A stretch of 64,000 nucleotides of DNA from an uncultured Rickettsiales bacterium. Lineage in GTDB: Bacteria; Myxococcota_A; UBA796; UBA9615. Location of the stretch: positions 7,120-71,119 of the forward strand of contig CAYQEG010000008.1 of NCBI GenBank assembly GCA_964416435.1, read 5' to 3'. The position numbers and the translations under genes are program-made. The notes beneath the pieces were generated by a model. It was not told the origin of the DNA, ran no database searches, and was given only the letters and a program-made list of their open reading frames with translations. Below are positions 30,232-64,000 of the stretch, one piece after another (position 1 is the stretch's first letter; every line of letters starts with the position of its first letter).

Positions 30232-30232
30232 C

Positions 30233-33871: not shown

Positions 33872-33880
33872 GAGCGCAGC

Positions 33881-41055: not shown

Positions 41056-41056
41056 G

Positions 41057-44571: not shown

Positions 44572-44600
44572 CGACAGCTCCTCGGTGGGCGGGCGCCGGC

Positions 44601-47521: not shown

Positions 47522-48516
47522 TTCCTCCTTCGCCGCTTCTCCGTGTCATCCGGAGTGTGACACGTTCCGCACAGCGCGTTTCCGCGGAGGGGTTTGCGCA
47601 TGTAGTCCGGCTCGAAGGTCCACGGCATGGGATCGGTATCCAGGGTCGCCGCTCTGCCTTGCAAGATCGGCTCCATCACCGACCACAACCAGGGGTCATC
47701 GAAGAGCGGCGTACCAGCCCACTCGGCCCGGTCCATCGCGGTCCGCTTGCTACCCGGCGGGTGGGGGTCGTGGCAGGTCCCGCAGAACACCTGGCCTTCG
47801 GGCGTCAGCGGCAACCCGCCGGCGTCGGCCCGGGCTCGCATGTCGTCGTCGAGGATCTGCAGGTGCTCGGCGCTCCCGGTGTGCCGGGTGTCCTCGTGGC
47901 AGCCGTAGCAGATCTGTACCCGGTCGACCTTGAGACGCTCCAGGTCGGGCTCGCCGTCCACGAGGTCGTGACAGAACTCGCAGATCGCGGTCGTGTCCCG
48001 CTTCTCTTCCATCGCGAGGTGTGGGTTGAAGCGCACCTCTTCAGCCGCCCCGTGACAGTTTTCGCACAGGTCGCCGAGGCTGGCGTAGGGACCGCCGCGG
48101 AAGAACCGGGGGTTCGCGGGATCCTGGCCGCCACCCGAGCACGCGGGCTCGTCGTGGCAGGTCAGGCAGGCCAGCTGACCGTCCGGCAGCGGGAACCCCG
48201 GGGGCACCCGGGCGAGGTCGCGCGGCACATCGGGCGCGGTCGCCCCCCGCCGATGCGCGTCGATGTCGACCTCGTGAGGGGCGCTGTCGTGGCACGAGCG
48301 GCAGGTGTCGTTGGCGGTGCCGGCGGCCCACGGGATGACCTCGGAGGTCGCGCCCGGCGAGGCCTCGGCGTGACAGGAGACGCATCGGTCCACCGCGAAG
48401 TGCGGATTGAGGCGGACCTCCCCCTGCTCGGGGGTGTCCGTCACGCCGGGCGACTGGGCCAGGGCGACGCCCGCGCACAGCATCGCGGCGAGGGCTCCGA
48501 GCGCGCGGCCGGTCAC
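47518..48516 (-). CDS. octaheme c-type cytochrome (paralog family A)
   Basis: GTG start overlapping the upstream stop (GTGA). Signal VTGRALGALAAMLCAGVALAQS. 8 CXXCH. Paralogous to 51495..52487 and 56724..57680 (shared ..TCH.EPAC..GGPY..C..CH block). The ORF-track extension to 49014 was rejected. Confidence 0.8.
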   Translation of the reverse strand: MTGRALGALAAMLCAGVALAQSPGVTDTPEQGEVRLNPHFAVDRCVSCHAEASPGATSEVIPWAAGTANDTCRSCHDSAPHEVDIDAHRRGATAPDVPRDLARVPPGFPLPDGQLACLTCHDEPACSGGGQDPANPRFFRGGPYASLGDLCENCHGAAEEVRFNPHLAMEEKRDTTAICEFCHDLVDGEPDLERLKVDRVQICYGCHEDTRHTGSAEHLQILDDDMRARADAGGLPLTPEGQVFCGTCHDPHPPGSKRTAMDRAEWAGTPLFDDPWLWSVMEPILQGRAATLDTDPMPWTFEPDYMRKPLRGNALCGTCHTPDDTEKRRRRK

Positions 48517-48821
48517 GGCGCCACCCCGTTGTCGCCGTGGCAGCGGGCGCATGTCTCGTACTCGCCATCCTCCGCCTCTTCGCGGATCGCCTCCAGGTCG
48601 AGGTCCGGCTCCAACGTGCAGTTGACCTGGTGGGTCGACTCCAGCGAGTGGCATTGCGTGCAGGCGTCGTTCCCCCAGCCCGCCTCGTGCTCCGACCGGG
48701 TCAGCTCCGCGCCACCGGGCCCGGCCAGCACGTCGTCGACCCCCGCGCAGGGATCGATGGCACAGCCGGGCATCGCCAGGACGACGATCACGCCGCAGAC
48801 GGCGATCGCGCGGCCTACCAT
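48513..48821 (-). CDS. small diheme c-type cytochrome lipoprotein (paralog family B)
   Basis: GGGAGG RBS. MVGRAIAVCGVIVVLAMPGC signal. CTQCH and CARCH. Paralog of 51193..51498. Confidence 0.7.
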   Translation of the reverse strand: MVGRAIAVCGVIVVLAMPGCAIDPCAGVDDVLAGPGGAELTRSEHEAGWGNDACTQCHSLESTHQVNCTLEPDLDLEAIREEAEDGEYETCARCHGDNGVAP

Positions 48822-49444
48822 CCTTGCCTCCCAGCCGGATCCGTGTGGCATTGGCGACAGGTGTCGCCCTGGTGGCAGTCCTCGCAGGAGACCGGGTCGG
48901 TGCGCGCGGCCATGCCGTGCAGGCTGAGCCAGTTCCCGTCATGCACGCCCGAGCCGAGGTCGTCCCGCCGGCTGTGACACCCGGCACACATCCAGCCGGT
49001 GTGGCATCCCGCACAGTGCTCCGGCTGGAGCACCGCCTCCCGCGCGTGGTCTCGCTTCCAGGCGAAGTGGTGACTGTCCGGGGGCGGCAGGTTCTCCGTC
49101 TCGTGGCAGGTTCGACACGGGCTCGGAGCCCCCAGCGGGTTGTCCTGCTGGTGGCACGTGTGACAGATCTCCTGCGTCGGGAGCAGCACGGAGTTCGCCG
49201 GATCGGTGAACGTCGGCCGGATCTCCCCTCCCGGAACCTCCGGCTCCTTCGTCGCGCCGATCGTGTGGCAGGGCAAGCAGATCCACCCCACTTCGTCCAT
49301 CACCGGCATGTGCACCCGGTGATCGAAGCGGTCGAAGATCTCGGGCAGTCGGTACTCGGGCTGCTCCGTCGTCAGCCGGCGCTGGGCCGAAGCGCAGGAG
49401 AGGAGGACCAGGGCGCCCACGAGCGTCCAACGGAGGCGGCTCAT
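48815..49444 (-). CDS. heptaheme c3-like cytochrome (paralog family C)
   Basis: Strong RBS GGAGGAAGGGAG before ATG MSRLRWTLVGALVLLSCASA. 7 CXXCH. C-terminal block ..GNWLSLHGMAARTDPVSCEDCH.. shared with 56014..56652. Confidence 0.8.
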   Translation of the reverse strand: MSRLRWTLVGALVLLSCASAQRRLTTEQPEYRLPEIFDRFDHRVHMPVMDEVGWICLPCHTIGATKEPEVPGGEIRPTFTDPANSVLLPTQEICHTCHQQDNPLGAPSPCRTCHETENLPPPDSHHFAWKRDHAREAVLQPEHCAGCHTGWMCAGCHSRRDDLGSGVHDGNWLSLHGMAARTDPVSCEDCHQGDTCRQCHTDPAGRQGW

Positions 49445-49939
49445 GCTCCCTTCCTCCACGCGACGACGTGCACCACCAGCCGGGCGTTGACCCGGAGGTC
49501 GTGTTGCAGCAGCGCGCTGCTGCGGTACTCGGCGCCGACCGCGATCTCGATCTGCCTCGCGGGCCGGATCGCCGCCTCGCCGAGCAGCCAGCCGGCGAGA
49601 CGCCAGGGTCTGCTGAGCTTGCGGTAGGGCACCACCTGGCCGACCAGGCGCAATCCGATGACGCGGTGGGGCACCCAGCCGAGCCGGCCGCCCACGGCGT
49701 GGAAGGTCCCGCCGTACGACGACGATCATGAAATCCCCCGGAATCCCTCATCGAGTGTGACCGTGATCATGTTGCGGGCCAGAATCGGGCGGGCCGCGCC
49801 CGAAGCTGACCTGGGTCATCGGCATCGCCGGGTCAGTCGTCACCGGTTCGGGCATGATCTCCGGCAGACGATGCTCCCATTTGGGACGATCGTCGTCGGG
49901 ACACCCCGCCGGCTCTTCGAGGGCCGGCACGGAGACCGA
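49445..49939. promoter_or_regulatory. divergent promoter region between two cytochrome operons
   Basis: About 495 bp between divergent starts at 49444 (-) and 49940 (+). Confidence 0.3.
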
Positions 49940-51196
49940 GTGAAGGTGCGCCAGGTTCTCCTCGCCGTCGCGGTCGGCCTGGTCGCGGCGATCGCGCAGC
50001 CGTCGCCGGCGTACGCCGATACGTTCCTCTATGGCCGCTCCACGACCAGCATCCAGCTCCGCGAGGACCTGGACGGGGTGGTCCGGGCGCCCCTGTACGA
50101 GACCTTCCACGGCGGCCTGAGCTACGACCTGGGCGCCGATCTGCAGCTCTCCAGCCTGGCCCTCGTCAAGCTGGGGACGGTGCTCGGGCACCCCGGCGGC
50201 ACGGTCGACCTGTACCTGCTCAACGTCGGCCTGCACCGCTACCGCGGGCGGCTTCGCCTGGTCGGCGGACGGCAGCTGCTGCGCACCGCCCGCGGGGTCC
50301 GGATCGTCGACGGCGTCTCCTTCCGGCTGCACCCGGCGGCGGCGATCTGGATCGACGCCGCGGCCGGCTGGCTGCGCGACATGGAGCTCGACGACTTCTC
50401 GGGCGGCTCGATGCTCTTGCAGGGCGGCGCCGGCCTGTCGCTGCTCCGCGGCACGCTGCTCGGCGCGCACGTCGGCTTCCGCGCCGGGCCGACGACCACG
50501 CCCCGGCTCGACGCCCGGCTGTCGGCCGAGGCGGTGCTCCCCGCCCCCTGGGCCCCCAAGCCGTGGATCGACGCGTCCTTCCGGCTGGACGCCGGCGGGC
50601 TGCGCAACGTCCGCGGCGGCGTCGTGCTCACGCCGATCCACCTCGTCGAGCTCGAGGTCCGCGGCCGGGTCGACCAGGTCGTCGACCACGACGGCACGCT
50701 GGCCCGCCGGATCCTCGCCGACCTGACCGACTCGCCGGTCGCCAGCCTGCAGGGGATCGCCACGCTCAAGGTGCGGGGCGGGTTCAGCGCGACCGCCAGC
50801 TACCAGGCGTCGCACTACCGGGTCGGGGCCGACCTGCCGAACCACGGCCACGGCGCGGACGTCGATGTCCGGCTGCACCGCAGCGGCTTCGGCGTCAGCG
50901 GCGGGTACGTGTTCCGCAGCTCCTACGGGGGGCTCTATCACTCCCTGGGCCTGGACGCGTACCTCCAACCGCACCGCGCGGTTCGGCTGGAGGCAGTCGC
51001 GCGCGCGATCCCGTTCCGCAAGGTGATCGGCCCCTGGGGGCTCGCTCAGTGGTACATGGCGCAGGTGTCGGTACATCCCAACGAGCACCTGCAGATCGTC
51101 GTCGGGGGGGAGTACCGCGCCGGAGCCACGCTCCAGCACGACCTCCGCCTCAACGCGTCGGTGACCCTCGTGGGCCGCCTGAGGAAGCGCGGATGA
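49940..51196 (+). CDS. secreted beta-rich protein, candidate outer-membrane porin-like component (paralog family D)
   Basis: GTG start with GGAG RBS. Signal VKVRQVLLAVAVGLVAAIAQPSPAYA. Alternating hydrophobic/Gly/Arg pattern. Paralog of the partial gene at 63174. Confidence 0.6.
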   Translation: MKVRQVLLAVAVGLVAAIAQPSPAYADTFLYGRSTTSIQLREDLDGVVRAPLYETFHGGLSYDLGADLQLSSLALVKLGTVLGHPGGTVDLYLLNVGLHRYRGRLRLVGGRQLLRTARGVRIVDGVSFRLHPAAAIWIDAAAGWLRDMELDDFSGGSMLLQGGAGLSLLRGTLLGAHVGFRAGPTTTPRLDARLSAEAVLPAPWAPKPWIDASFRLDAGGLRNVRGGVVLTPIHLVELEVRGRVDQVVDHDGTLARRILADLTDSPVASLQGIATLKVRGGFSATASYQASHYRVGADLPNHGHGADVDVRLHRSGFGVSGGYVFRSSYGGLYHSLGLDAYLQPHRAVRLEAVARAIPFRKVIGPWGLAQWYMAQVSVHPNEHLQIVVGGEYRAGATLQHDLRLNASVTLVGRLRKRG

Positions 51197-51498
51197 GGGC
51201 GCTCACCATCGCCGCCCTCCTGGCCCTGGCTTGCACCCTCGCGGCGTGCAGCTCCGATCCCTGCGCCGGACGCGGGGACATGATGGAGAGCCCCGGCGCG
51301 CTGGAGGTCACCGAGGACGAGCACCCCGCCGGGTGGGGCAGCGATCAGTGTCTGCAGTGCCACTCCCTGGAGACCACCCACCGGGTCCGCTGCAGCTCCT
51401 TCGAAGACCTCGACATCGCCGCCGTCCGCGAGCAGGCGGCGCCGGGGAACGACGCCTGCGGCGATTGCCACGGGACCAACGGTCTGGAGGGCGCGTGA
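51193..51498 (+). CDS. small diheme c-type cytochrome lipoprotein (paralog family B)
   Basis: ATGA overlap with the upstream gene. MRALTIAALLALACTLAACSS. CLQCH, CGDCH. Confidence 0.7.
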   Translation: MRALTIAALLALACTLAACSSDPCAGRGDMMESPGALEVTEDEHPAGWGSDQCLQCHSLETTHRVRCSSFEDLDIAAVREQAAPGNDACGDCHGTNGLEGA

Positions 51499-52487
51499 TC
51501 GTTCGACCGACCGGCGTCCTGCTCATCGCGTGCGGCCTGGCGATCGCGATCGCCCTGGCGTCCCCCACGCGGGGCGCCGCCCAGGACGACGCCGCCGAAG
51601 AGGTCCACGGCGCCACCGAGGGGGTGGACAACCCCCACGGGCGCGCCGACGCCTGCTCCTCGTGTCACGAAGCGACCGACGCCGCCGACGTCACCACCCC
51701 GGCCTCCCTGGAGGCCGCCGTCTGCCGCGACTGCCACCCCCGCGACCGCATGTACCTCGGCTGCCTCGAAGAGAAGGCCCACCCCATCGGCCAGGAGCTG
51801 AAGACGGCGACGGTCCCGGCGGACTGGCCGCTGCTCGACGGGACGATCACGTGCGCCACGTGCCACGCCGAGCCGGCGTGCGACAGCGACCGCAACCCCG
51901 AGCCGCCGTACCACCGCGACGGCCCCTACCTCGTCGAGTTCTCGCTCTGCTGGCAATGCCACGAGGCCGACACCGTCGAGCGCAGCAATCCCCACCGCCC
52001 CGACGAGTGGCGCAAGGCGGACCGGAGCTGCACCGCGTGCCACAGCGGGTTGCCCGACCCGGGCGTGCCCCCGGCCCAGTCGCGGCTCCGCGGCCCCGAG
52101 GCGGAGGTCTGCGCGACCTGCCACCCGGTGCCGCTGCACCTGGGATCGGCGGCCCACCTCGGCAAGCAGGTGGAGGACTTCGACCCGACCTTCGCGGCCG
52201 GCCTGATCGCGCTGGACGAGGAGGGCCGGATCTGGTGCTGGACCTGCCACGAGGTGCACGGCGACGGCGATCGCATCCCGCCGGACCTGCCGCCCCCGCC
52301 GGTGGCCGAGCAGCGCGAGCTGCGGAGCGGCTACCGGAGCCTCCCGGGCCCCGACGTGCTGGGGGAGCTGCGCCAGGACCGGGTGCTCGACCCACCCGAG
52401 CCCGGCCCGGACTACCAGCCCCTGCTCGCCCTGCCCGCGGACGACGGTTCCCTGTGTCGCGCCTGCCACGGGGAGGGACCCCGATGA
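51495..52487 (+). CDS. octaheme c-type cytochrome (paralog family A)
   Basis: GTGA overlap. VIVRPTGVLLIACGLAIAIALA signal. 8 CXXCH. Confidence 0.8.
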   Translation: MIVRPTGVLLIACGLAIAIALASPTRGAAQDDAAEEVHGATEGVDNPHGRADACSSCHEATDAADVTTPASLEAAVCRDCHPRDRMYLGCLEEKAHPIGQELKTATVPADWPLLDGTITCATCHAEPACDSDRNPEPPYHRDGPYLVEFSLCWQCHEADTVERSNPHRPDEWRKADRSCTACHSGLPDPGVPPAQSRLRGPEAEVCATCHPVPLHLGSAAHLGKQVEDFDPTFAAGLIALDEEGRIWCWTCHEVHGDGDRIPPDLPPPPVAEQRELRSGYRSLPGPDVLGELRQDRVLDPPEPGPDYQPLLALPADDGSLCRACHGEGPR

Positions 52488-55018
52488 CGCGCGCGGCCCG
52501 CCTCGCCGTCGTCGCCCTCGGGCTGGCCCTCGCCGGCTGCCCCTGGGGCCCGGAGCCGCTCCCCGAGCTCCGGGACGGCGCCCCCACGGTGGACGCGGCC
52601 CGCCTCACCCGCGTCAACCTGGACACCGTCTTCGCCAGTGACCTGGTCGCGCTGCCCGGGGGGCGCTTCGCGGTGCTCGACGGCAAGCAGCTGCGGCTCC
52701 ACGTCGGGGCCGAGGAGGGGGCCCTCGAGCAGATCGACGGCGACCCGGCGTGGGGCGCGCCCCTGAGGATCGCGAAGTCCGCCGACGGCTGGCTGCTGCT
52801 CGACGCCGGCGACCGGGAGCGCCTCTCCGCCTTGACCTGGGTCGGCCAGGACTGGACGACCGCAGAGCTGCTCGGCCCGGACCCCGACGGAGCGTTGGAC
52901 CCGCCGCTCAGCCCCACCTGCGGCCTGGACCTGGGGGACCAGGTGGTCATCGGTGATCGGTTCGGCCGGATCGTTTGGGTCAACCGGGCCGACGGCTCGG
53001 TCACCCGGATCGTCGCGCTCGATCGCGACGACGAGCCGATGGGCTCGATCACCGACATCATCGCGCTCCCCGGCGGCGGCTGGGCGGCGGTCGACAGCCT
53101 CGGCCCCTACGTGCACCTGCTCGACGCCGAGGGACGCCCGACGGGCCGCTTCGGACGGTACGGGCTGTGGGCCGGCACGATGAAGAAGCCGAAGTCGATC
53201 GCGCTGTACGGTGACGACATCTTCGTGGTCGCCGACTCGGCCCTCGGGGTGGTCCAGCTGTTCACGGCCGAAGGGGAGTTCGTCGGGCTCGTCGCGGTCG
53301 ACGGAGAGCCGCTCCGGCTGGGGCACCCCCTCGCGGTGCGCCGCGCGCCGGACCAGCCCCACCTGTACTACGCGCTCGACGCCGATGGAGGCAGCGTCGT
53401 GCGTTTCTGGCTTCCCCGCGAGACGGTCGACGCGGCGGTCGACCTGCTCGGCACCCGCTACCTGCGGATGCCGCTGGTGGACGCCGAGCGCGACACCGTC
53501 GGAGTCGGCGGACACAACTGCAAGCAGTGCCACGACGGGTTCCTGTCCAGCGTCTGGAGTGGCTGGGACCTGGGTCGTGAGTCGCACCCGGTCGACATCG
53601 CCCCGGAGAAGGCGGTGCCGCCCTTCTTCCCGCTGCGCGACGGCGAGATCACCTGCGACACCTGCCACAGCCCCCACGGCACGGTCGGCCTCGACGCCGC
53701 GATCCGCTTGGAGCACGGCGACGACGCGCTGGAACTCGAACGGGCCCACCCGGCGGACACCTTCACGCGCATCTCCGCGGAGAACTCCGATATCTGCATC
53801 GCCTGCCACTCGGACAACGCCCACCAGGCCCAGGTGGAGCGAGCCGGTGGCGGCGACGGGAGCGCTCACCCGACGGGCCGGGAGCTGCTCGCCGCGCTCG
53901 ACACCGTGGTCGGCGAGGCGACGTCGGGGGACACCGCCACGGATTGCCTGTCCTGCCACACCCCCCACGGGGGCACGACGGAGCCGCTGCTCCGGTCACT
54001 GGACGACGGTGCGCTGTGCGCTTCGTGCCACGAGCGGCAGGCCCGCACGCGGACCAACCACCCCCTCGGCCAGCGCCCCGGCGACGACGTCCCGCGGCCG
54101 GACCGGCACGCCAAGTTGACCCTCGCCCGGGGCGGCGGCGTGCTCTGCCGCACCTGCCACCAGCTCGTCGGCGGCACGGGCGACGCGCTGCTGCGTGAGC
54201 CGGCGAACGGCACGATGCTGTGCCTCGCCTGCCACGACGACCGCAAGGGCGTGCCGACGTCGCGTCACGGTCGGGTCCGCGGGGCTCAGGGCATCCCCTG
54301 CCTGGGCTGCCACGACGTGCATGGAGGCCACGCGGACCAGGAGATGCTGCGCACCCGGAAGCACGCCAGCGACGGAGATCCCGACGGCTGCCTGGGCTGC
54401 CACGGTCCCGACGGCCGGAATCGCTCCCGGACCGCCCGCCCGGGCGAACGAGGTCACGCGGTGCCCGTGAGCGCCGCGGGCATGGATCCGGTCGAGGACT
54501 GCGGGACCTGCCACGACGCCCACCTCGCCGACATCCCCAAGGTGGACGCGTGTGGCGACTGCCACGCCGACCAGCAGGTCGAGCAGGACCGCGGGGGCCA
54601 CGGTCGCGCGGTGTGCGTCGACTGCCACCCGGCCCACGAGGACGCCCCGCGCGCGCGCAACATCAAGGCGAACCCGATCTCCCAGCGCTGCCTCGGCTGC
54701 CACGCGACGATCGTTGACGCCGGCCCCGAGACCCCTCGGGTCTCGTCCTACGAGCATCCCGCCCCGGTGTTCGCGCCGGACGGCGAGCGCTGGAAGCCGC
54801 TGGGCAAGCTGCCGCTGTTCGCTCCCGACGGCTCGTTGGTCCCCCCGGGGACCAACGGCGACCTGACCTGCGCGACCTGCCACCGGGTGCACGGCCCGGA
54901 TCCGGACGAGGCGCTGACGGGCCTTCGGCGACCGGAGTGGCGGGAGCCCTGCACCGCCTGCCACGGGGCCGAGGCGATGCCCTTCTACCTCTACTTCCAC
55001 GAGCCGGACCGACGATGA
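52484..55018 (+). CDS. NHL-repeat beta-propeller fused to multiheme (about 15 CXXCH) c-type cytochrome (paralog family E)
   Basis: ATGA overlap. Lipoprotein signal LGLALAGCP. NHL-like repeats (..IVWVNRADGSV.., ..IFVVADSALGVVQLF..) in the N-terminal 330 aa, then dense CXXCH. Confidence 0.8.
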   Translation: MTRAARLAVVALGLALAGCPWGPEPLPELRDGAPTVDAARLTRVNLDTVFASDLVALPGGRFAVLDGKQLRLHVGAEEGALEQIDGDPAWGAPLRIAKSADGWLLLDAGDRERLSALTWVGQDWTTAELLGPDPDGALDPPLSPTCGLDLGDQVVIGDRFGRIVWVNRADGSVTRIVALDRDDEPMGSITDIIALPGGGWAAVDSLGPYVHLLDAEGRPTGRFGRYGLWAGTMKKPKSIALYGDDIFVVADSALGVVQLFTAEGEFVGLVAVDGEPLRLGHPLAVRRAPDQPHLYYALDADGGSVVRFWLPRETVDAAVDLLGTRYLRMPLVDAERDTVGVGGHNCKQCHDGFLSSVWSGWDLGRESHPVDIAPEKAVPPFFPLRDGEITCDTCHSPHGTVGLDAAIRLEHGDDALELERAHPADTFTRISAENSDICIACHSDNAHQAQVERAGGGDGSAHPTGRELLAALDTVVGEATSGDTATDCLSCHTPHGGTTEPLLRSLDDGALCASCHERQARTRTNHPLGQRPGDDVPRPDRHAKLTLARGGGVLCRTCHQLVGGTGDALLREPANGTMLCLACHDDRKGVPTSRHGRVRGAQGIPCLGCHDVHGGHADQEMLRTRKHASDGDPDGCLGCHGPDGRNRSRTARPGERGHAVPVSAAGMDPVEDCGTCHDAHLADIPKVDACGDCHADQQVEQDRGGHGRAVCVDCHPAHEDAPRARNIKANPISQRCLGCHATIVDAGPETPRVSSYEHPAPVFAPDGERWKPLGKLPLFAPDGSLVPPGTNGDLTCATCHRVHGPDPDEALTGLRRPEWREPCTACHGAEAMPFYLYFHEPDRR

Positions 55019-55128
55019 AGACGTTCCGAATCGCCCTGTTCGCCTTCCTGGTCGGCTTCCTGCTGGTCGCGATCGGCCTGTCCCAGACGATGTTCCTCTG
55101 GAACGCCTGGCACCACGGGGGGTTCTGA
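55015..55128 (+). CDS. small hydrophobic membrane peptide (37 aa)
   Basis: ATGA overlap with the upstream gene. MKTFRIALFAFLVGFLLVAIGLSQTMFLWNAWHHGGF. The downstream GTG start lies 2 nt after its stop. Confidence 0.35.
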   Translation: MKTFRIALFAFLVGFLLVAIGLSQTMFLWNAWHHGGF

Positions 55129-55129
55129 C

Positions 55130-56017
55130 GTGCGGCGACTGTTCCGCTGGCTCCTGGAGCAGGCGAGGGAGACCTGGACCTACCTGCTGGAGCGCCCCGC
55201 CCGACTCGGGGTCGTGTTGATCGCGCTGGCCCTGGGCAGCCTCGCGGGCATGCCGGTCGGCCAGGAGGTGTTCCGCTACACGTGGTCGGACGCCCGCTTC
55301 TGCGACGACTGCCACACCCACGACTACGCCAACGAGGCGTGGTCCCGGTCGGTGCACGCCAAGCTCACGACCTGCCACGACTGCCACCGGGTCCCGATCC
55401 GTCACTACCCGAAGAACCTGTGGGTCACCGTCGTCCGCAAGCCCAGGAGCCAGGACGACATCCACCGCCCCGACGTCGCCACGGTCATCTGCGAGCAATG
55501 CCACGCCGAGTCCGGGGCGGACGAACCGTTGACGGGGCCGCTGCCGAGCGAGCTTCGAGGGCAGGTCGTCAAGATCGACCACAGCCCCCTGCACAAGGTC
55601 CACCTCGAGGCGGACAGCCGCGAGCCGGGGAGCTACCGCGGAGGCGGGCACGGCGACGAGCCCCCGGAGGGTGGAGCCCACGGCGAGGAGCCCGGCGAAG
55701 CCGAAGCCCCCGGGGGAGAGCACGGCGAGGAGCCCGAAGGGTCGGGCCACGCCCCCGACGAGCAGGGGGGCGGGCACGGCGCGGGACACGGCGACGGCCA
55801 CTTCACGGGCCCGATCACCTGCATGGACTGCCACGGCTCGGACGACAACCGCGCCCACCAGTTCCAGGCGAGCCGAGCGAACTGCCTGGAGTGCCACCCC
55901 GATCAGGCGCTCGTGGGGGAGCGGATGCAGGTCCTGTCGTGCCGTGAGTGCCACTTCGCCGGCTTCCTGAGCCGAGATGCCCACGCTGGTCCTCCTCTCG
56001 CCGGGGGGCACCCTTGA
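55130..56017 (+). CDS. NapC/NirT/NrfH-like membrane-anchored multiheme cytochrome (6 CXXCH) with His/Glu/Gly-rich linker
   Basis: N-terminal TM helix GVVLIALALGSLAG, then CDDCH, CHDCH, CEQCH, CMDCH, CLECH, CRECH. Confidence 0.7.
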   Translation: MRRLFRWLLEQARETWTYLLERPARLGVVLIALALGSLAGMPVGQEVFRYTWSDARFCDDCHTHDYANEAWSRSVHAKLTTCHDCHRVPIRHYPKNLWVTVVRKPRSQDDIHRPDVATVICEQCHAESGADEPLTGPLPSELRGQVVKIDHSPLHKVHLEADSREPGSYRGGGHGDEPPEGGAHGEEPGEAEAPGGEHGEEPEGSGHAPDEQGGGHGAGHGDGHFTGPITCMDCHGSDDNRAHQFQASRANCLECHPDQALVGERMQVLSCRECHFAGFLSRDAHAGPPLAGGHP

Positions 56018-56652
56018 GACTCCGCCTCCCCCGGGCGCTCCCGGCGCTGCTCCTCGTGCTCGCCGTCGCTGGTGGCTGCGCCGCCCTGCAGCGCCAGCCG
56101 GCCACGGTGGACGACGACACCCGCCTGAACCGGATCTTCTCGCGGTTCGAGCACGCCCGGCACGACGCCGCCCTGGAGGTCGCCGGCTGGCAATGCAGCG
56201 ACTGTCACTACGTCGGCGCGGTGATCGAGGGGGAGCCGGACGAGACGCTGGAGGTCGAGCTCGACCGGGTGCTCCTCCGGCCTCCCGCCAGGACCTGCCA
56301 CTCCTGTCACGAGCGCTCGGAGGCGACCCAGCTCGCCACCGCGACCCGGTGCCGCCTCTGCCACGAGGAGGGCGACCTGCCGCTCCCCGAGACCCACACC
56401 GCCAGCTGGGTCATCCAGCATCAGCGCGACGCCATGCTCGAGCCGGAGAGCTGCTACGACTGCCACGAAGGGCACCGCTGCGTCCAGTGCCACGTCTACC
56501 GGGACCAGGTCTCCCACGACACCCACGACGGCGCCTGGCTCAGCGTGCACGGCATCGCCGCGCGCACCGACCCGGTCTCCTGCGACCGCTGCCACGAGGG
56601 CCAGTCCTGCCAGGACTGCCACTCCAGCTCGCTGGGGCGCGACGGCTGGTAG
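56014..56652 (+). CDS. heptaheme c3-like cytochrome lipoprotein (paralog family C)
   Basis: Putative TTG start overlapping the upstream TGA. Lipobox LLLVLAVAGGCAA. 7 CXXCH. C-terminal block shared with 48815..49444. Confidence 0.7.
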   Translation: MRLRLPRALPALLLVLAVAGGCAALQRQPATVDDDTRLNRIFSRFEHARHDAALEVAGWQCSDCHYVGAVIEGEPDETLEVELDRVLLRPPARTCHSCHERSEATQLATATRCRLCHEEGDLPLPETHTASWVIQHQRDAMLEPESCYDCHEGHRCVQCHVYRDQVSHDTHDGAWLSVHGIAARTDPVSCDRCHEGQSCQDCHSSSLGRDGW

Positions 56653-56723
56653 AGAACCCCCGAACCTGACCGTCGCCACGGTCCCTCGGGGAGCACGGCA
56701 CGAATCTGGCACACCTCGGCCCT

Positions 56724-57680
56724 GTGCGGCCTTTTCCCTCCGCCAGACCTTCCCCGGCGCTCGCCAGAGCTGCGGTTCTCGCGACGGGAATCCTCCTCGT
56801 CGCTGTCAATCGCCCCGTAGACGCGTCCGCCGACGGAGCAGGTGCTGCAGCCGAGCAGCAGCGTGAGAACCCCCACGACCGTCCGGACGGATGTGCGCTG
56901 TGCCACATGCCCTCCGAGTACGCCGACGAGCCGGTCGGAGCCCCGCTTCCGACGGCCGAGAGCTGCGGCGACTGCCACGAAGAGGCGGACATGCACCCCA
57001 CCCATGTTCCGGTGGTGATCGCGACGGTGCCGGACGACTTCCCGCTCGAAGACGGCCTGATCACCTGCTCGACCTGCCACGCAGAACCGGCCTGCAACGG
57101 CAACCGGAGCCGGGTCGCCCCCTGGCGACGCGGTGGACCGTACCCCCACGCCATGTCGTTCTGCTGGCGCTGCCACCCGGCCGAGGAGTACGGCCGCAAC
57201 GATCCCCACCACCCCGCAGAGCGGCGGGCCGACGACGACCCCACGTGCGCCTACTGCCATACGACGCTGCCGGAGTCCGGCGCGCCGATCGCCGAAGCGC
57301 GCCTGCGCACCGACTCGGTCAAGGTCTGCGACACCTGCCACCTCGGTGACGTGCACTACGGCACCGCCACTCACGCCGGGGTGGCGATCGAGGAGGCCGA
57401 CCGCGCCTCCCTCGACCCGAAGATCGAGCTGGACGAGGGCAGCGTCGTGCGGTGCTGGAGCTGCCACGAGGTCCACGGCGACGGCGAAAGACCGCGACCG
57501 GCGGCGACCGACGACGACCGCCCCTCGACCACCGCCCTCCTGCCCGGCCCCGACGCCCTGTGGGTCGACGAGGCGCCCCCGGCCCGGATCCGCCCGACCG
57601 ATCCCGCCCACCCCTCGCTGCTCGTGCTGCCCGCCGATGACGGACAGCTCTGCCGCGCCTGCCACGGAGTCGGCCCGTGA
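56724..57680 (+). CDS. octaheme c-type cytochrome (paralog family A)
   Basis: 8 CXXCH. Shares the ..CSTCHAEPACNGN..GGPYPHAMSFCWRCH block with the other family-A paralogs. Confidence 0.8.
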   Translation: MRPFPSARPSPALARAAVLATGILLVAVNRPVDASADGAGAAAEQQRENPHDRPDGCALCHMPSEYADEPVGAPLPTAESCGDCHEEADMHPTHVPVVIATVPDDFPLEDGLITCSTCHAEPACNGNRSRVAPWRRGGPYPHAMSFCWRCHPAEEYGRNDPHHPAERRADDDPTCAYCHTTLPESGAPIAEARLRTDSVKVCDTCHLGDVHYGTATHAGVAIEEADRASLDPKIELDEGSVVRCWSCHEVHGDGERPRPAATDDDRPSTTALLPGPDALWVDEAPPARIRPTDPAHPSLLVLPADDGQLCRACHGVGP

Positions 57681-60600
57681 GAGAACTCCACCCGCCCCCC
57701 CGCCTCCTCCCCGGGGCGCTGCTGCTGACGCTGGTGTTGTCGCTGCTCGCGGCGACGGCGCTCGGCCAGGAGGCCGTGGCGGATCCCGCTCCGGAGCCCG
57801 ACGCGCCCCTCCCCGAGGCCCTCGCTCCGGCGGACGCCGAAGACTGCCTCGCCTGTCACCGCTTCCGCGGCCTCGCCCGGCTCGACCATGAGACCGGCGA
57901 GCTGCGCCTGTTCTTCTGCAGCGACCGTCACTACGCCCGCCAGGAGGGGCCTCACTCCCGCCTCGCCTGCACCGACTGCCACGAGCGCGAGCCCCTGAGC
58001 GCCGTGCCCCACGAGGATCCGGAGCCGGTCGACTGCTCTCGGAGCTGCCACCTGGCCGGGCCCGGGGGGCTGGAGCTGGAGTTCAGCCACGAGGCGATCG
58101 CCGAGAAGATCGAGCGCAGCGTGCACGCCAGCGAGGCGCTGGCCGACCTGGTGGCCGACGACTCCCCGCTGCGTGAGGGACAGTCCGCCTGCCTCTTCTG
58201 CCACGACGAGCCGGTGTTCCGGGAGGCTGGCGCGGCGGATCCCGCGCACCGCGGCGAGATCATCACGGCGCGCTGCGACAGCTGCCACACCGAAGAGCTG
58301 CCGGTCGACGTCGAGTACTTCCTACGCCACACGGCGGGCCGGCTGCAGAGCGCCCGACCCATCGAGCGGACCGCGGAGGTCTGCGCCGCGTGCCACAGCG
58401 ACCACGCCCTGTCCGACAAGATGGAGCTGCACGACGCCGTCACGAGCTACTTCCACAGCTTCCACGGCAAGGCGAGCCTGCTCGGCAACGCTCTCACCGC
58501 CACCTGCGTCGACTGCCACCGGACCGAGGAGGGCGATGTCCACCTGATGCTCTCGGCCGAGGACCCGGAGTCCCGGACCCACGAGGCCAACCTCGAGACC
58601 ACCTGCCGCACCGCGAACTGCCATCCCAACGCGGTGCCCCAGCTGTCCGCCGCCGGCGTACACCTGTCGATCGATCCGGACGCGCGCACGCCCGAGTTCT
58701 ACGTCATGGCCGCCTTCGTGGTGCTCACGGTCGGCGTGATGACGATCTACTTCCTGCTCGTGCTGCTCGAGCTGCTCAACGCGGCGCTCCGCCCCCACAG
58801 CGAAGAGCACAAGCGCAGGGTCGCCGTCGCCGAAGCCCTGATGCGCACCAAGGAGGGGGGCAGGCGGCTGCTGCGGCTGACGGTCCACCAGCGCTGGCAG
58901 CACTGGGCCCTCGTCCTCAACTTCTTCGTCCTGGTGCTCAGCGGGATGCCGCTGAAGTTCGCGACGAAGCCCGGCATGGCGGCGATCGCCACCCTCTTCG
59001 GCGGCATCGACGGAGCCCGCCTCGCTCACCGCGTGGCGGGTGTGCTCCTGATCCTCGCGTTCCTGTACCACGTGGGCTACGTCGCCTGGCACGCGAAGCG
59101 GGACTGGGCGCGGCGCCGCGAGGAGCAGCCGGAGCGGCCCGCCCGCAAGCGGCTGTTCGACCTCGTCATGGAGTCACCGATGATGGTGACGCCCCGGGAC
59201 CTGGTGCACTTCGGGCAGCTGTTCCTGTACCTGGTAGGGCTGCGCCGGGACCGCCCGATGCACGGCCGCTACCACTTCAGCCAGAAGTTCGAGTACTGGG
59301 CGGTCTTCTGGGGCATGGCGATCATCGGCACGAGCGGGGCGATGCTGTGGGCCTCGGGCTGGGTGACGCAGGTGACCGGCGGACGCTCGCTCAACTTCGC
59401 GTTCATCGTGCACTCCGACGAGGCGTTCCTGGCGCTGATCTACATCTCCGTCGTGCACTTCTTCGCGGTGATCTTCTCGCCGTCGGTGTTCCCCCTCAAC
59501 CTGGGCTCGCTGACCGGCGTGATGCCGCCGGAGGAGCTCGCCGAGCAGCACACCGGTCACCTGCTCACGGTCGCCGAGGAGCTCGGCCTCGACGTCGAGC
59601 GCGCAGCTCCCCACAACGGCACCAGCCTCGGGCTCAACCTCATGCGGCGGGGCTACGCCCTGCTGCTCGCGCTCTTCGTCGCGACGCTGGGGTTCTTCTC
59701 GCTGCGCATGCTGGTCGAGGAGCTGGTCGCCGGACACTCGGTCGTCGAGGTCGAGGAGATCCCGCTGCGGCTCGACGAACGCTCCCTCGCCGCCGCGGAG
59801 GGGGATCACGAGCAGCGCTCCCTGCGGACCGAGCAGTACGCGCGGGGACCGATGTCGCACTACCACGTCATCCCGACCTGGTTCCGACCCGACCCGGGCA
59901 ACGGCTGCTCGTCGTCGGGCTGCCACCAGGCGCTGCCCCACGGCGAACGCAAGGAGGACCGCGCGTTCCTGAACATGCACAGCACGTTCGTGGACTGCCT
60001 GGTCTGCCACCTGGACGAGCCGATGGGGATCGACGACCTGTCCTGGGTCGCGCTGGAGGACCGGGCCGGACGCCCGGCGCCGGCCGTGCTGCGGCTCGCC
60101 GAGGTGCTGCGTCGGCCCTTCCCCGAGGATTCCACCCGCCAGCCCGACGCCGCCGCCGAGCTGCTCGCCCTGACGACGGAGGCCGTCGCCGACACCCTGG
60201 GTGACGACGAGCTGGAACGTTGGCGGCTCGAGCTGGAGACGGCGCGGATCGGCGGTCCTCGCTACCTGCACGTCTACGGAGAGATGCAGCGCTGGATCGG
60301 GCTGCACGGCCACGGCGAGTACGGCGCGAAGGTCGGCCTTCCGGGCCGCGTCTGGACCCCGGACGCCGAGCAGGCCGCCGCCGCGGACGCCCTCGCCGAC
60401 GGCATCGACGACGAGGCGGAGCGCCAGCTTCAGGTCGACATCGTGCACCGCGGGGTGGTCCGACCCGAGGTCCGGTGCACCCGCTGCCACACCGAGAACC
60501 CCACGGTCGTCGACTTCGAGACGCTCGGCTACGCCCAGGAGCGGGCCCACGAGCTGCAGACCCAGGCGGTGGCCCGCCAGTCCGAGGCGATCGAGCAGGG

Positions 60601-60709
60601 CGAGGTCTTCTACCTGCCGTCGGTGCTCGACGGCACCCCGGGCCGGTACGACTCGCCGCTCTGGCAGCACCCCGAGGACGAACTCCCCCCGGAGGACTCC
60701 ACTCCGTGA
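57677..60709 (+). CDS. CbcL-like fusion: periplasmic multiheme c domain + diheme cytochrome b (HydC/FdnI-like, 4-5 TM) membrane domain + C-terminal c-heme domain
   Basis: GTGA overlap. Signal. About 8 CXXCH/CX3-4CH N-terminally. Central TM block with conserved His (..LTVHQRWQHWALVLNFFVLVLSGMPLKF.., ..RLAHRVAGVLLILAFLYHVGY..) typical of Ni/Fe-hydrogenase or formate dehydrogenase b-type subunits. C-terminal CLVCH, CTRCH. Confidence 0.75.
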   Translation: MRELHPPPRLLPGALLLTLVLSLLAATALGQEAVADPAPEPDAPLPEALAPADAEDCLACHRFRGLARLDHETGELRLFFCSDRHYARQEGPHSRLACTDCHEREPLSAVPHEDPEPVDCSRSCHLAGPGGLELEFSHEAIAEKIERSVHASEALADLVADDSPLREGQSACLFCHDEPVFREAGAADPAHRGEIITARCDSCHTEELPVDVEYFLRHTAGRLQSARPIERTAEVCAACHSDHALSDKMELHDAVTSYFHSFHGKASLLGNALTATCVDCHRTEEGDVHLMLSAEDPESRTHEANLETTCRTANCHPNAVPQLSAAGVHLSIDPDARTPEFYVMAAFVVLTVGVMTIYFLLVLLELLNAALRPHSEEHKRRVAVAEALMRTKEGGRRLLRLTVHQRWQHWALVLNFFVLVLSGMPLKFATKPGMAAIATLFGGIDGARLAHRVAGVLLILAFLYHVGYVAWHAKRDWARRREEQPERPARKRLFDLVMESPMMVTPRDLVHFGQLFLYLVGLRRDRPMHGRYHFSQKFEYWAVFWGMAIIGTSGAMLWASGWVTQVTGGRSLNFAFIVHSDEAFLALIYISVVHFFAVIFSPSVFPLNLGSLTGVMPPEELAEQHTGHLLTVAEELGLDVERAAPHNGTSLGLNLMRRGYALLLALFVATLGFFSLRMLVEELVAGHSVVEVEEIPLRLDERSLAAAEGDHEQRSLRTEQYARGPMSHYHVIPTWFRPDPGNGCSSSGCHQALPHGERKEDRAFLNMHSTFVDCLVCHLDEPMGIDDLSWVALEDRAGRPAPAVLRLAEVLRRPFPEDSTRQPDAAAELLALTTEAVADTLGDDELERWRLELETARIGGPRYLHVYGEMQRWIGLHGHGEYGAKVGLPGRVWTPDAEQAAAADALADGIDDEAERQLQVDIVHRGVVRPEVRCTRCHTENPTVVDFETLGYAQERAHELQTQAVARQSEAIEQGEVFYLPSVLDGTPGRYDSPLWQHPEDELPPEDSTP

Positions 60710-63174
60710 GACGGCTCGGCTGGATCGCGGCGCTCGGCCTGGCGGCGATGATGCTGCCGGCGTCGGGCGTGCGTGGCGACGCCGGGCAGATGCTCGTGGC
60801 GCACGACGTGCGCACGTTCGAGGTGACCGACGGGGCGCCGCTGGTGCTGCCGACGTCGGTGGCGGTCACCGACTCGGGCACGGTCTGGGTCGCCGACGGC
60901 GTCAACGACCGGGTCGTCGGGTTCACCCCCGACGGGGCCGTCGCGGAGGTCGTCGACAGCATCGATGGCCGCCCCCTCTCCTCCCCCGGGGCCGTGGAGA
61001 CCCGCGGCGAGGACCTGTGGGTCGCGGACACCGGGGGACGCCGGATCGCCGTGCGCGGGGCCGACGGCGCCGAGCGCTCGATCGAAGTCGCCCCACCGTG
61101 GGGCGAGACGCTCGACGTGACGGACCTGGCGGTCTCGTCGGACGGGCGATGGCTGTGGCTGGTCGACAACGACCACCACCGGGTCATCCGGGGGGATCTC
61201 GACGACGGCACGTGGGCCGCGCTCGGCCGCCTCGGGGCGGGTACGGGGCGCCTGCGCTACCCGTTCACCCTCGCGCTCGCAGACGACGGCGACGTCTACG
61301 TCGGGGACGCGCTCAACGGCCGGCTGAGCGTCTTTACGGCCGCCGGCCGGGCCGGCCGCCCGATCGGCGGCTACGGCGTCTCGGCGGGCCAGCTGTACCG
61401 GCCCAAGGGGATCGCGGCCCAGGACGGGCTGCTCTGGGTGGCCGACGGCACCCTGGGCGTGATCCAGGCGTTCGACCGCGCCGGACCGCTCGTGGACGTG
61501 CTGCGGGAGCCCGACGGGGAGCTGCTGCGCCTCGCCAACCCGGCCGGACTGGACGTGGTCGGCGACCGCATCTTCGTGGTCGAGATGGACGAGGGGCGCG
61601 TCCGCGAGCTCCGGTTCGAGGCCGCCCCCGGGCTGCCCAGGACGCAATCGCGCCCGGGACGCGCCGCGCGGGGCCGGGAGTGCACGGTCTGCCACCTGGA
61701 GCTCGTCCCGGAGCTCGAGCGCGGTGATGAGCGGGCGTTGATCCCGCCGCCGCCGAACCACGAGCAGCAGCCGTGGGTCAGCCGGCCCGAGAACTGCCAG
61801 TCCTGCCACGACGGCACGATCATGGACTCCAGGAAGCGGGTCTGGGCGATGCCCGGTCACCCGAGGGACCAGGAGCCCGAAGAGCCGATGGTCGTGCCCG
61901 ACCAGCTCCCGCTGACGGACGGCATGGTGACCTGCCGGACCTGCCACTCGGCCCACACCCTGGCCGGCTCGGGCAAGGCCCACCGCGACGCCCTCCTGCT
62001 GCGCGTCGACGACCGCCCGTCGGAGCTCTGCGTCGCGTGCCACGGCGAGCCCTTCGAGGACCAGCCCCCGGGCACGAGCCACCCGACCGGAGAGCTCGAG
62101 ACCGCCGACGGAGGGCTGAGCCGCGTCGAGTGCCTGGACTGCCACGGCGCCCACGGCACCACCGACGAGGAGCGGCTGGTCGAGGACGAGCGGGGGGACG
62201 CCTGCCTGGATTGCCACGAGGAGATGCGGACCCGGGCCCCCGGGGAGCACTCTCGAGGCAAGAAGGTCCAGGAGCCCGCCGCGGACCGCACCCTGGCGAA
62301 GCGCGGGCTGCTCCTCCCCGAGGGTCGGGTCGCCTGCCTCAGCTGCCACAAGGCCCACGGCGAAGTGGACGCCGCGGCGCTCTGCGTCACCTGCCACGGC
62401 GGTCACCAGGCCGGCTCCGGGCGCGTCCACAGCTCCGCCAGCTGCCTGGACTGCCACGCGGTGCACGTCGTTCGGCGGGACCGCGTCGTGCAGCGCAAGC
62501 CGTCGCCCGGGGACCCCACCGGCTGCCTCGCCTGCCACGGCCCCGGCACCAAGGCCGAGCCCGACCTCGCCCGCCCCGGGACCGAGGGGCACCCGCTGCT
62601 GGACCAGCCCGGCGGACGGGAGCAGACCGATCCGCCGCTGACCGGCTGCCCCTCCTGCCACGACCCCCATGGCCACTCCGCCGGCGACGCGTCGCTGTGC
62701 GAGCGGTGCCACGACGAGCGGGAGGCCGAGATGGACCGGGGCGGCCACGGCGACGCCACCTGCATCGAGTGCCACCCGGCCCACAACGAGCCGGTCCTCG
62801 CCCACATCGGCGATGAGGTCAACCTGGCCTCCCGGCGGTGCCTCGCCTGTCACGCCGAGGGCTCGGAGGTGGAGCACGACACGCCCCAGGTGGACGCCTA
62901 CCAGCACCCGTCGATGGTGTTCCTGCCCGACGGCACGTCGTGGACGCCCGAGGGCGCGCTGCCGCTGTATGGCTCCGACGGCCGGGAGCTGCCCGCCGGG
63001 CGCAACGGCGACCTGGTGTGCAGCAGCTGCCACCTGACCCACGGCCCGTCGGCCCAGCGGGAAGCGACGGCCCGTCGCCGCGCCGGCTGGGAGGGCGAGT
63101 GCACGCCGTGCCACGGCCCGACGGCGCTGTCCCTCTACCTGTACTTCCACAAGCCCGATCGGCGGGAGGAGTGA
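60706..63174 (+). CDS. NHL-repeat beta-propeller fused to about 16-heme c-type cytochrome (paralog family E)
   Basis: GTGA overlap. Signal VRRLGWIAALGLAAMMLPASG. NHL-like repeats (TVWVADGVNDRVVGF, LWVADTGGRRIAV, VYVGDALNGRLSVF, LWVADGTLGVIQAF). 16 CXXCH. Confidence 0.8.
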   Translation: MRRLGWIAALGLAAMMLPASGVRGDAGQMLVAHDVRTFEVTDGAPLVLPTSVAVTDSGTVWVADGVNDRVVGFTPDGAVAEVVDSIDGRPLSSPGAVETRGEDLWVADTGGRRIAVRGADGAERSIEVAPPWGETLDVTDLAVSSDGRWLWLVDNDHHRVIRGDLDDGTWAALGRLGAGTGRLRYPFTLALADDGDVYVGDALNGRLSVFTAAGRAGRPIGGYGVSAGQLYRPKGIAAQDGLLWVADGTLGVIQAFDRAGPLVDVLREPDGELLRLANPAGLDVVGDRIFVVEMDEGRVRELRFEAAPGLPRTQSRPGRAARGRECTVCHLELVPELERGDERALIPPPPNHEQQPWVSRPENCQSCHDGTIMDSRKRVWAMPGHPRDQEPEEPMVVPDQLPLTDGMVTCRTCHSAHTLAGSGKAHRDALLLRVDDRPSELCVACHGEPFEDQPPGTSHPTGELETADGGLSRVECLDCHGAHGTTDEERLVEDERGDACLDCHEEMRTRAPGEHSRGKKVQEPAADRTLAKRGLLLPEGRVACLSCHKAHGEVDAAALCVTCHGGHQAGSGRVHSSASCLDCHAVHVVRRDRVVQRKPSPGDPTGCLACHGPGTKAEPDLARPGTEGHPLLDQPGGREQTDPPLTGCPSCHDPHGHSAGDASLCERCHDEREAEMDRGGHGDATCIECHPAHNEPVLAHIGDEVNLASRRCLACHAEGSEVEHDTPQVDAYQHPSMVFLPDGTSWTPEGALPLYGSDGRELPAGRNGDLVCSSCHLTHGPSAQREATARRRAGWEGECTPCHGPTALSLYLYFHKPDRREE

Positions 63175-64000
63175 TGCGGCTGCACCTCGTCGCCGTCGTG
63201 ATCCTCGTCGCGGGGCTGCTCGCTCCGACGCCCGCCGTGGCCGACCCGGTCGTCGAGCTCGGCTCGGTGACGAGCATCCAGCTCCGCCAGGACCTGGACC
63301 GCGTGCTTCGCCTGCCGCTGTACGAGGATGTCAGCGCGCGGGTCACGGCCGATCTGCCGGGGACCTGGAGGCTGAGGGCGTCCGCGCTGCTGCGCCTGGA
63401 CACCGTGATCCGCGCTCCCGGAGGCGACGTCGACCTGTACCTGGGGTCGATCCAGCTGCGCCGCGCCCGTCGCGCCGTCCGCTTCGAGATCGGTCGCCAC
63501 CTGCTGCGCACCCCGGCCGGCCTCCGGATGGCCGACGGCGTGAGCGTGACCGCGAGGCCCGCCCGGGCGGTGCGGGTGCAGGGCGCCGCGGCGTGGCTGC
63601 GCGACTGGGAGTTCGACGACTTCGGGTACGGCGGCGAGGTGCTCGTGCAGGGCGGCGTGACGGTCGAGCCGATCCGGGGCCTCTTCGCGTCCGGGCTGCT
63701 CGCGATGCGGGTCGGGCCACAGACGTCCCTCCGCATGGATGCGCAGTTCACCGCCGACGCGGTCCTCCCCGCCCGCTGGGCGCCGCACCCCTGGATCGAC
63801 GGCTCCTTCCGTGTCGACTCGGGCGCGCTGCGCCGCCTGCGCGGCGGCCTGGAGCTGACGCCGAGCGCGCGCACCCGCCTGGAGGTGTTCGGCAGCGTGG
63901 TGAACGTGGCCGATCCCGACGGCACGATGGCCCAGCGCATCCTCCAGCAGATGACCTCGGCGCCGACCGGGTCGGGCGGCCTGCGCGGCTCGATGCGCTT
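63174..64000 (+). CDS. porin-like secreted beta-rich protein, 3'-partial (paralog family D)
   Basis: TGATG overlap. Signal MRLHLVAVVILVAGLLAPTPAVA. Collinear similarity to 49940..51196 (TSIQLRQDLD..PLYE.., GGDVDLYL, AAWLRDWEFDDF). Frame open to window end. Confidence 0.55.
   Translation, partial: MRLHLVAVVILVAGLLAPTPAVADPVVELGSVTSIQLRQDLDRVLRLPLYEDVSARVTADLPGTWRLRASALLRLDTVIRAPGGDVDLYLGSIQLRRARRAVRFEIGRHLLRTPAGLRMADGVSVTARPARAVRVQGAAAWLRDWEFDDFGYGGEVLVQGGVTVEPIRGLFASGLLAMRVGPQTSLRMDAQFTADAVLPARWAPHPWIDGSFRVDSGALRRLRGGLELTPSARTRLEVFGSVVNVADPDGTMAQRILQQMTSAPTGSGGLRGSMR

Follow-up and report, generated by a model that had tools for sequence, protein, structure and literature searches.

A distant CbcL-family bc-type cytochrome with a fused triheme module, a candidate quinol:cytochrome c oxidoreductase of an uncultured bacterium

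Few routes are known by which electrons leave the quinone pool for extracellular acceptors, and CbcL-type proteins provide one of them. CbcL (GSU0274) of Geobacter sulfurreducens is an inner-membrane bc-type menaquinol oxidase that is required for acceptors at about −0.1 V or lower and is inactive at higher potential; it consists of a periplasmic nine-heme domain (residues 30–279), six transmembrane (TM) helices and a diheme b domain of the HydC/FdnI type (its published properties are drawn from PMC9129911, bioRxiv 10.1101/2022.08.31.506072 and PMC6295460). Table S2 of PMC6295460 gives GSU0274 as 619 residues with TM6 at 589–611, so that CbcL ends about eight residues past its last helix. The same 2018 survey describes homologs in 15 phyla, 416–1034 residues long, with hemes only before the TM region in the Table S2 entries compared here, and FeGenie-based surveys have flagged 'CbcL' homologs in metagenome-assembled genomes (MAGs) of Phycisphaerae and Myxococcota. 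Here we analyze gene G in a 64,000-nucleotide stretch (the window) of contig CAYQEG010000008.1 (positions 7,120–71,119, assembly GCA_964416435.1) from an uncultured bacterium labelled Rickettsiales and placed by GTDB in Myxococcota_A. The product of gene G is likely an inner-membrane quinol/quinone:cytochrome c oxidoreductase of the CbcL/MtrH/MtoC family, with thirteen predicted hemes (two b and eleven c), fused to a membrane-anchored triheme subunit. By analogy with its described relatives, its function is most likely quinol:cytochrome c electron transfer, for which we infer a direction, a potential range and an extracellular role.

Gene G is an uninterrupted open reading frame (ORF; 57677–60709, forward strand) that begins with GTG at 57677, ends with TGA at 60707–60709 and encodes 1010 residues. 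Third-position guanine–cytosine (GC) content is 0.94 from end to end, which indicates that the frame is coding throughout; the window as a whole has a GC content of about 66–81% per 2-kb block. The protein carries eleven heme c motifs, eight in the N-terminal part (residues 57–316) and three after the last helix, and six TM helices (339–371, 403–427, 443–483, 534–558, 570–599 and 648–684). The N-terminal motifs comprise CxxCH at 57, 98, 172, 200, 236 and 277, CX3CH at 120 and CX4CH at 310, whereas the C-terminal ones are C744x4C749H750, C774xxC777H778 and C934xxC937H938. Both c-heme domains are predicted to be periplasmic, since covalent heme attachment requires this location, and the K/R-rich loops after helices 1, 3 and 5, on the predicted cytoplasmic side, agree with the positive-inside rule. 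An AlphaFold2 model built on 94 homologs has a mean predicted local distance difference test score (pLDDT) of 84 and a predicted template modeling score (pTM) of 0.79.

Conservation was assessed on 94 aligned homologs for the N-terminal and TM parts and on the 84 full-length ones for the C-terminal part. In homologs 40–58% identical to the gene G protein, the eight N-terminal heme motifs are invariant or nearly so, and the octaheme domain also holds nine conserved candidate distal histidines. With a signal-like segment preceding the eight motifs, the periplasmic multiheme c domain described in an earlier reading of this DNA, made from its letters and translated ORFs (the sequence-only reading), is borne out. 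That reading had also noted a further c-heme segment at the C-terminus. Its three motifs, together with H728, H730, H755, M767 and H768, are invariant in 84 of 84 full-length homologs, H924 is kept in 83 and H877 in 79, and this conservation marks the segment as a real, conserved domain. Taken over heme motifs and b-heme histidines together, the conservation is far beyond chance.

The relationship to CbcL extends over the entire CbcL chain. BLASTP aligns residues 9–671 of the gene G protein with residues 7–605 of G. sulfurreducens CbcL (sequence P0298, 619 residues, whose nine CxxCH positions fall within one residue of those in Table S2 of PMC6295460) at 27% identity over 686 columns (E = 9e-53), well inside the BLAST limit of E < 0.01 that the survey used to collect the family. 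Comparison of the two family profiles with hhalign gives a probability of 100% (E = 8e-65, 551 columns), and a protein of the CbcL clade from Desulfuromonas thiophila matches at E = 8e-51. The two proteins share the order of signal peptide, N-terminal multiheme c domain and six TM helices enclosing an FdnI/HydC-type diheme b bundle, as well as the motifs PLKF, EKF[DE][YF]xAVFWGM, IVHSDEA[FL]LA and VHFF. Eight of the nine CbcL hemes are kept in position: according to hhalign, hemes 1–3 correspond to CbcL hemes 1–3 and hemes 4–8 to CbcL hemes 5–9, with CbcL heme 4 falling in a gap. A CbcL ortholog of D. thiophila is called at locus L080 (3697–5540) as two genes (434 and 179 residues) with a frameshift-like junction; an intact 614-residue version, 98% identical, is present in other records (P0273).

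The gene G protein lacks an equivalent of CbcL heme 4, and it has eight motifs, two of them in the wider forms CX3CH and CX4CH, where CbcL proper has nine CxxCH in a periplasmic domain some 250 residues long. Members of the CbcL clade, which belongs to the Desulfuromonadales, are 57.6–100% identical to one another (PMC6295460); at 27–28% identity to that clade, the gene G protein is not a CbcL ortholog, and the alignments characterize it as a genuine yet distant member of the CbcL/MtrH/MtoC family. It has the exported multiheme c domain, the six TM helices and the HydC/FdnI-like b domain with its histidine ligands that define this family, but departs from it in that its hemes do not all precede the TM region and its chain does not end soon after TM6: CbcL stops there, whereas here TM6 carries a further 326-residue triheme domain. 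Host lineage differs too, as does the conserved partner, which for gene G is a multiheme cytochrome with an NHL domain. The resemblance to Geobacter CbcL proposed in the sequence-only reading therefore holds as full-length homology, but not as orthology, and the C-terminal c-heme segment that was part of the comparison is absent from CbcL.

Other described systems resemble the protein in part. The MtoC/MtrH branch (Gallionella, Dechloromonas, Rhodoferax) belongs to the same architecture class, and when motif positions alone are compared, the spacings between the first four heme motifs (41, 22 and 52) lie close to those of MtoC-type entries (40, 23 and 53; CbcL has 23, 25 and 23), while the second half follows the CbcL pattern. 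In contrast, going by their descriptions in PMC6295460, MtoC and MtrH have nine CxxCH motifs, end after TM6 and are encoded beside mtoAB or mtrAB. Compared by description, two-subunit bc cytochromes such as G. sulfurreducens CbcBA resemble the split form that many relatives of gene G have, in which a membrane b cytochrome is paired with an adjacent, separate, membrane-anchored multiheme c subunit; in the family of gene G, however, the b subunit already has an octaheme domain, and the additional triheme subunit belongs to no recognized family.

Turning to the b domain, residues in this region pass the Pfam model PF01292 (Ni_hydr_CYTB; 40.0 bits against a cut-off of 30.1) and match NCBIfam TIGR01583 (formate dehydrogenase gamma) at E = 1.5e-13, with 51 bits against an equivalog cut-off of 115.85. 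Among PDB sequences the best phmmer match is FdnI (E = 0.033), the cytochrome b556 gamma subunit of E. coli formate dehydrogenase-N (PDB 1kqf, chain C), and in Foldseek, too, FdnI is the one PDB structure that the model matches significantly (E = 6.6e-5, root-mean-square deviation 3.8 Å, TM-score 0.75 on FdnI). The fold is thus of the HydC/FdnI diheme type, as had been proposed from the sequence. The FdnI heme ligands H18, H57, H155 and H169 align with H409, H451, H579 and H594, each invariant in 94 of 94 aligned sequences; since all four ligands are accounted for in this way, the loss of histidines on which the sequence-only reading would have fallen is not seen. In the model, H409 and H594 would ligate the heme near the cytoplasmic face and H451 and H579 the heme near the periplasmic face. 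FdnI and the gene G protein share the four-helix fold and all four ligands but are only 16% identical, and FdnI lacks c-heme domains and extra helices and docks an Fe-S subunit. It works as a menaquinone reductase, whereas for the gene G protein we propose the oxidation of quinol. A fifth TM histidine, H465 (59069–59071), is also invariant in 94 of 94 homologs; it sits on the same helix as the outer-heme ligand H451, 14 residues below it and level with the cytoplasmic-side heme. BLASTP aligns it with CbcL H417, in a column that is partly conserved in the CbcL clade and lies outside those conserved at 90% or more.

The triheme module distinguishes this family from CbcL, and it occurs in two genetic arrangements. 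Across 78 related loci, copies were classed by whether a single unbroken ORF spans both the b domain and the C-terminal module: the module is fused in 38 copies (36 loci, 36 independent genomes) and forms a separate ORF immediately downstream in 51. Locus L047 illustrates the split form, with a first gene that stops after the fifth helix, an overlapping gene of 372 residues that opens with a TM anchor and carries three heme motifs, and an NHL cytochrome gene after it. From these counts, the gene G protein represents a fusion of a two-subunit complex, and since many relatives encode the module as a subunit of its own, the working unit is a two-part complex. At twelve loci a fused and a split copy stand in tandem (L013, L014, L016, L017, L019, L020, L024, L028, L031, L032, L033 and L036), which suggests two functionally distinct paralogs; these loci are mostly labelled Phycisphaerae or other Planctomycetota, and L036 is labelled Myxococcota. 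The sequences indicate that each of the two forms is an established lineage and not a product of sequencing error.

A scan of residues 641–1010 against 1.84 billion representative proteins returned 291 relatives at E ≤0.001, 72 of them at ≤1e-30, and most of these representative relatives are stand-alone proteins of 345–390 residues. The core of the triheme domain is modelled with pLDDT >90. No Pfam family matches the domain at threshold, relaxed settings giving only sub-threshold c7/c3-type matches near the first two motifs, and Foldseek returned nothing significant for its model in the PDB (best E = 1.2). As a guess, the module might form a bridge that leads away from the outer b heme, or it might serve the NHL cytochrome as a docking site or exit wire.

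A search across 5.8 billion proteins yielded 239 relatives. About 100 of them are full length (937–1060 residues, 43–59% identity), and further relatives are forms of about 620 residues that end after the fifth helix. When each GTDB species is represented by a single genome, relatives are encoded in 214 genomes. Among the best 80 of these, all are MAGs or assemblies of uncultured organisms; the closest (about 50% identity) are labelled Myxococcota, Deltaproteobacteria or 'proteobacterium', and most others in this set are Phycisphaerae, Tepidisphaerales and other Planctomycetota, with a few Verrucomicrobiota. Homologs in Joint Genome Institute (JGI) records are named 'cytochrome b subunit of formate dehydrogenase' or 'thiosulfate reductase cytochrome b subunit', and others are annotated merely as cytochrome b/b6 domain-containing proteins, so that surveys by name miss or misread them.

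Gene G lies in a forward-strand operon (window 49961–64000, continuing into locus L001 at 7886–10118) made up of cytochromes and two proteins of unknown family, A and I, only (Table 1). Its GTG start shares the tetranucleotide GTGA with the TGA of gene F upstream, and its own TGA overlaps the GTG start of gene H downstream in the same manner; on account of these overlaps, F, G and H appear to be translationally coupled. The operon consists of two paralogous modules. Module 1 comprises A (putative barrel), B (8-heme), C (15-heme NHL cytochrome), D (NapC/NirT-type) and E (7-heme), and module 2 comprises F (8-heme), G, H (16-heme NHL), I (putative barrel), J (7-heme) and K (diheme cytochrome); J, K and most of I lie past the window end and were seen in L001. 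Paralogous pairs are A/I (46% identity, E = 1e-116), B/F (41%, 1e-65), C/H (33%, 3e-95) and E/J (42%, 3e-52). D and G are candidates for two unrelated quinol dehydrogenases, one per module; D also matches the NrfH family at E = 1e-6, below the cut-off of that model. Among the related loci, an F-like gene stands directly upstream in about 23 of 78, and an H-like NHL cytochrome follows within 5 kb in 47 of the 62 with enough sequence (within 1 kb in 43). Signal peptides, a lack of cysteine and strong beta-type amphipathic periodicity (z = 5.5–5.9; 5.5 for I) are common to proteins A and I (about 410 residues), and from these features they may be the outer-membrane barrels of porin–cytochrome conduits; neither has a Pfam or NCBIfam match, and similar genes were not found in the other 78 related loci.

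Together, these elements suggest a path for electrons. By sequence and model, the Sec signal peptide exports the octaheme domain, helix 1 brings the chain back to the cytoplasm, helices 2–5 form the FdnI-type bundle that would hold the two b hemes, and helix 6 leads the chain out again and so places the triheme domain in the periplasm. Menaquinol oxidation would take place in the b domain, and its probable site is close to the heme on the cytoplasmic side, as extrapolated from FdnI, in which the quinone site lies near that heme, and from work on CbcL, for which like reasoning has been used (bioRxiv 10.1101/2022.08.31.506072). Electrons would then cross the membrane over the two b hemes to the periplasmic c hemes and move on to the 8-heme cytochrome F and the 16-heme NHL cytochrome H, and possibly further through the putative outer-membrane barrel. 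With a quinol site on the cytoplasmic side, this step would consume membrane potential instead of building it, a property that would suit low-potential acceptors.

Electrons could also run the other way, the protein then acting as a quinone reductase that takes up electrons from outside, for example from Fe(II) oxidation, as has been proposed for the MtoC branch. PMC6295460 places CbcL, MtrH and MtoC in Fe(III) reducers and Fe(II) oxidizers alike, with no sequence feature that separates them, and the first heme spacings are nearer to the MtoC type; against this stand the CbcL-like second half of the spacing pattern, the absence from the operon of recognizable Cyc2 or MtoA/MtoB-type genes, and the presence in the window of genes for Rnf and 2-oxoacid:ferredoxin oxidoreductase, a typical endowment of heterotrophic anaerobes. 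None of these three is decisive, and on balance we judge the reverse direction rather unlikely. A different proposal would dispense with extracellular transfer: the protein might be a quinol dehydrogenase that anchors a periplasmic respiratory enzyme acting on some soluble substrate to the membrane, with the NHL cytochrome as the catalytic subunit. Propeller-heme enzymes occur in other systems, the NHL multiheme cytochrome is the most conserved neighbor of this family, and the finding of no counterparts to the putative barrels in the other 78 loci would also fit. Yet neither NHL cytochrome of the operon exceeds the curated cut-off of any catalytic family, their best matches, also below cut-offs, are to generic electron-wire families such as the DmsE/MtrA-type decahemes, at least twelve genes in the window encode multiheme cytochromes, and NHL proteins turn up repeatedly in gene clusters for extracellular electron transfer in other bacteria (bioRxiv 10.1101/2022.05.06.490989; PMC9769857). 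We give this proposal little credence.

The names given to JGI homologs and the matches to TIGR01583 and PF01292 would make the protein an ordinary cytochrome b (gamma) subunit of formate dehydrogenase or hydrogenase. While it has the four-helix diheme fold of FdnI and HydC gamma subunits, the partner genes of such subunits (FdnGH, HyaAB) are not beside it: no genes for catalytic molybdo- or Ni-Fe subunits (FdnG/FdnH, hydrogenase) are present in the operon at 49.6–64 kb. The TIGR01583 score falls far short of the equivalog cut-off, only about 200 of the 1010 residues form the b domain, which shares one covalent chain with eleven c-heme sites, and the pairwise BLASTP match to CbcL is much stronger than the phmmer match to FdnI among PDB sequences; a gamma-subunit identity is effectively refuted and very improbable. 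The idea that the fusion is an artefact of assembly or a frameshift joining two adjacent genes draws on the 51 copies in which the module is a separate ORF, but it has to contend with the uninterrupted copies in 36 independent genomes, with near-identical 1010-residue ORFs in three separately assembled metagenome samples and in JGI and NCBI records, with codon-position GC that is uniform over the junction, and with fused and split copies side by side at twelve loci. The probability of an artefact is negligible, and this explanation too is effectively refuted.

The assignment as a CbcL-family quinol:cytochrome c oxidoreductase has several points to answer. The invariant fifth histidine H465 lies outside the four-ligand scheme taken from FdnI. 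At 27% identity, potential range, quinone type and direction cannot be transferred from CbcL, and the quinone site is placed by analogy. The barrel assignment of A and I is putative and derives from a periodicity heuristic, and every family member identified here comes from a metagenome.

In the literature, of which our coverage is incomplete, neither the triheme module nor the existence of split and fused forms nor the pairing with an NHL cytochrome was found described. As a tentative and possible extension, the module could be an undescribed cytochrome subunit with a fold of its own which, with the CbcL-like core and the NHL cytochrome, makes up a distinct, widespread inner-membrane complex for electron export, possibly the principal point at which uncultured Phycisphaerae, other Planctomycetota and Myxococcota-like bacteria oxidize quinol to feed extracellular or periplasmic electron transfer; since twelve loci carry both versions, fused and split forms may be tuned to different acceptors. 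The family adds to the CbcL core a second, separable periplasmic heme module and a conserved NHL partner, and its split and fused members offer a natural two-subunit system for dissecting the b-to-c hand-off. Its 214 species-level genomes, mainly Phycisphaerae and other Planctomycetota and Myxococcota-like bacteria with some Verrucomicrobiota, represent lineages whose anaerobic respiration is poorly understood. The occurrence of a CymA/NrfH-type protein (D) and a CbcL-type protein (G) in paralogous modules echoes the division of labor between ImcH and CbcL in Geobacter, and the pair could act as a potential-dependent switch.

Table 1. Features of gene G and neighboring operon genes (window coordinates; residues refer to the gene G protein)
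Feature	Position	Strand	Basis or remark
Gene A, putative barrel	49961..51196	+	Paralog of I
Gene D, NapC/NirT/NrfH-type cytochrome, one TM helix, six hemes	55130..56017	+	PF03264, 24.3 bits vs cut-off 24.1 bits
Gene F, 8-heme periplasmic cytochrome, coupled to G	56724..57680	+	
GTG start and Sec-type signal peptide, residues 1–30	57677..57766	+	Hydrophobic segment residues 10–28, then ALG-QE
Periplasmic octaheme c domain, residues 31–338 (predicted)	57767..58690	+	Conserved motifs, alignment to CbcL hemes
First TM helix, residues 339–371, periplasm to cytoplasm (predicted)	58691..58789	+	Hydropathy 2.67; model pLDDT >90; aligns with CbcL TM1
FdnI/HydC-type four-helix diheme b domain, residues 398–600	58868..59476	+	Pfam, TIGR01583, ligand alignment, Foldseek
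Predicted heme b ligand H409	58901–58903	+	
Predicted heme b ligand H451	59027–59029	+	
Predicted heme b ligand H579	59411–59413	+	
Predicted heme b ligand H594	59456–59458	+	
Cytoplasmic linker, residues 601–647 (predicted); end point of first gene in split homologs	59477..59617	+	
Sixth TM helix, residues 648–684; corresponds to CbcL TM6 and to the N-terminal anchor of the separate triheme subunit in split homologs	59618..59728	+	
Periplasmic C-terminal triheme domain, residues 685–1010 (predicted), and stop codon	59729..60709	+	
Gene H, NHL beta-propeller and 16-heme cytochrome	60706..63174	+	
Gene I, putative outer-membrane beta-barrel, cut by window end	63174..64000	+	Full 416 residues at L001 7886–9136

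Several further gene groups surround the operon. A divergent cluster on the reverse strand (43303–49747) contains five more multiheme cytochrome genes, among them one with a collagen-like triple-helix repeat (43303–44646) and one with carboxypeptidase-regulatory-like domains (45410–47545); at 47518–49747 the frames overlap and gene boundaries are ambiguous. Directly upstream of the cytochrome region, a forward-strand stretch (27239–42276) encodes a 2-oxoacid:ferredoxin oxidoreductase (27239–29278), a very large ORF with one 4Fe-4S ferredoxin-type domain (30224–33871), another with domains like those of pyruvate:ferredoxin oxidoreductase (PFOR-like) and Fe-S domains (34705–38076), and an Rnf operon with an RnfB-like Fe-S protein (33872), RnfC (38077), an FMN-binding RnfG-like protein (40381) and Rnf-Nqr membrane subunits (41018 and 41623). 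Genes of a contractile injection system flank the region, with a Baseplate J-like protein of 1280 residues encoded within 22603–26442 on the reverse strand and sheath, tube, gp19 and VgrG-like genes just past the window end (L001 10981–15421). A gene for an HmuY-like heme-binding protein lies at 14113–14835 on the reverse strand.

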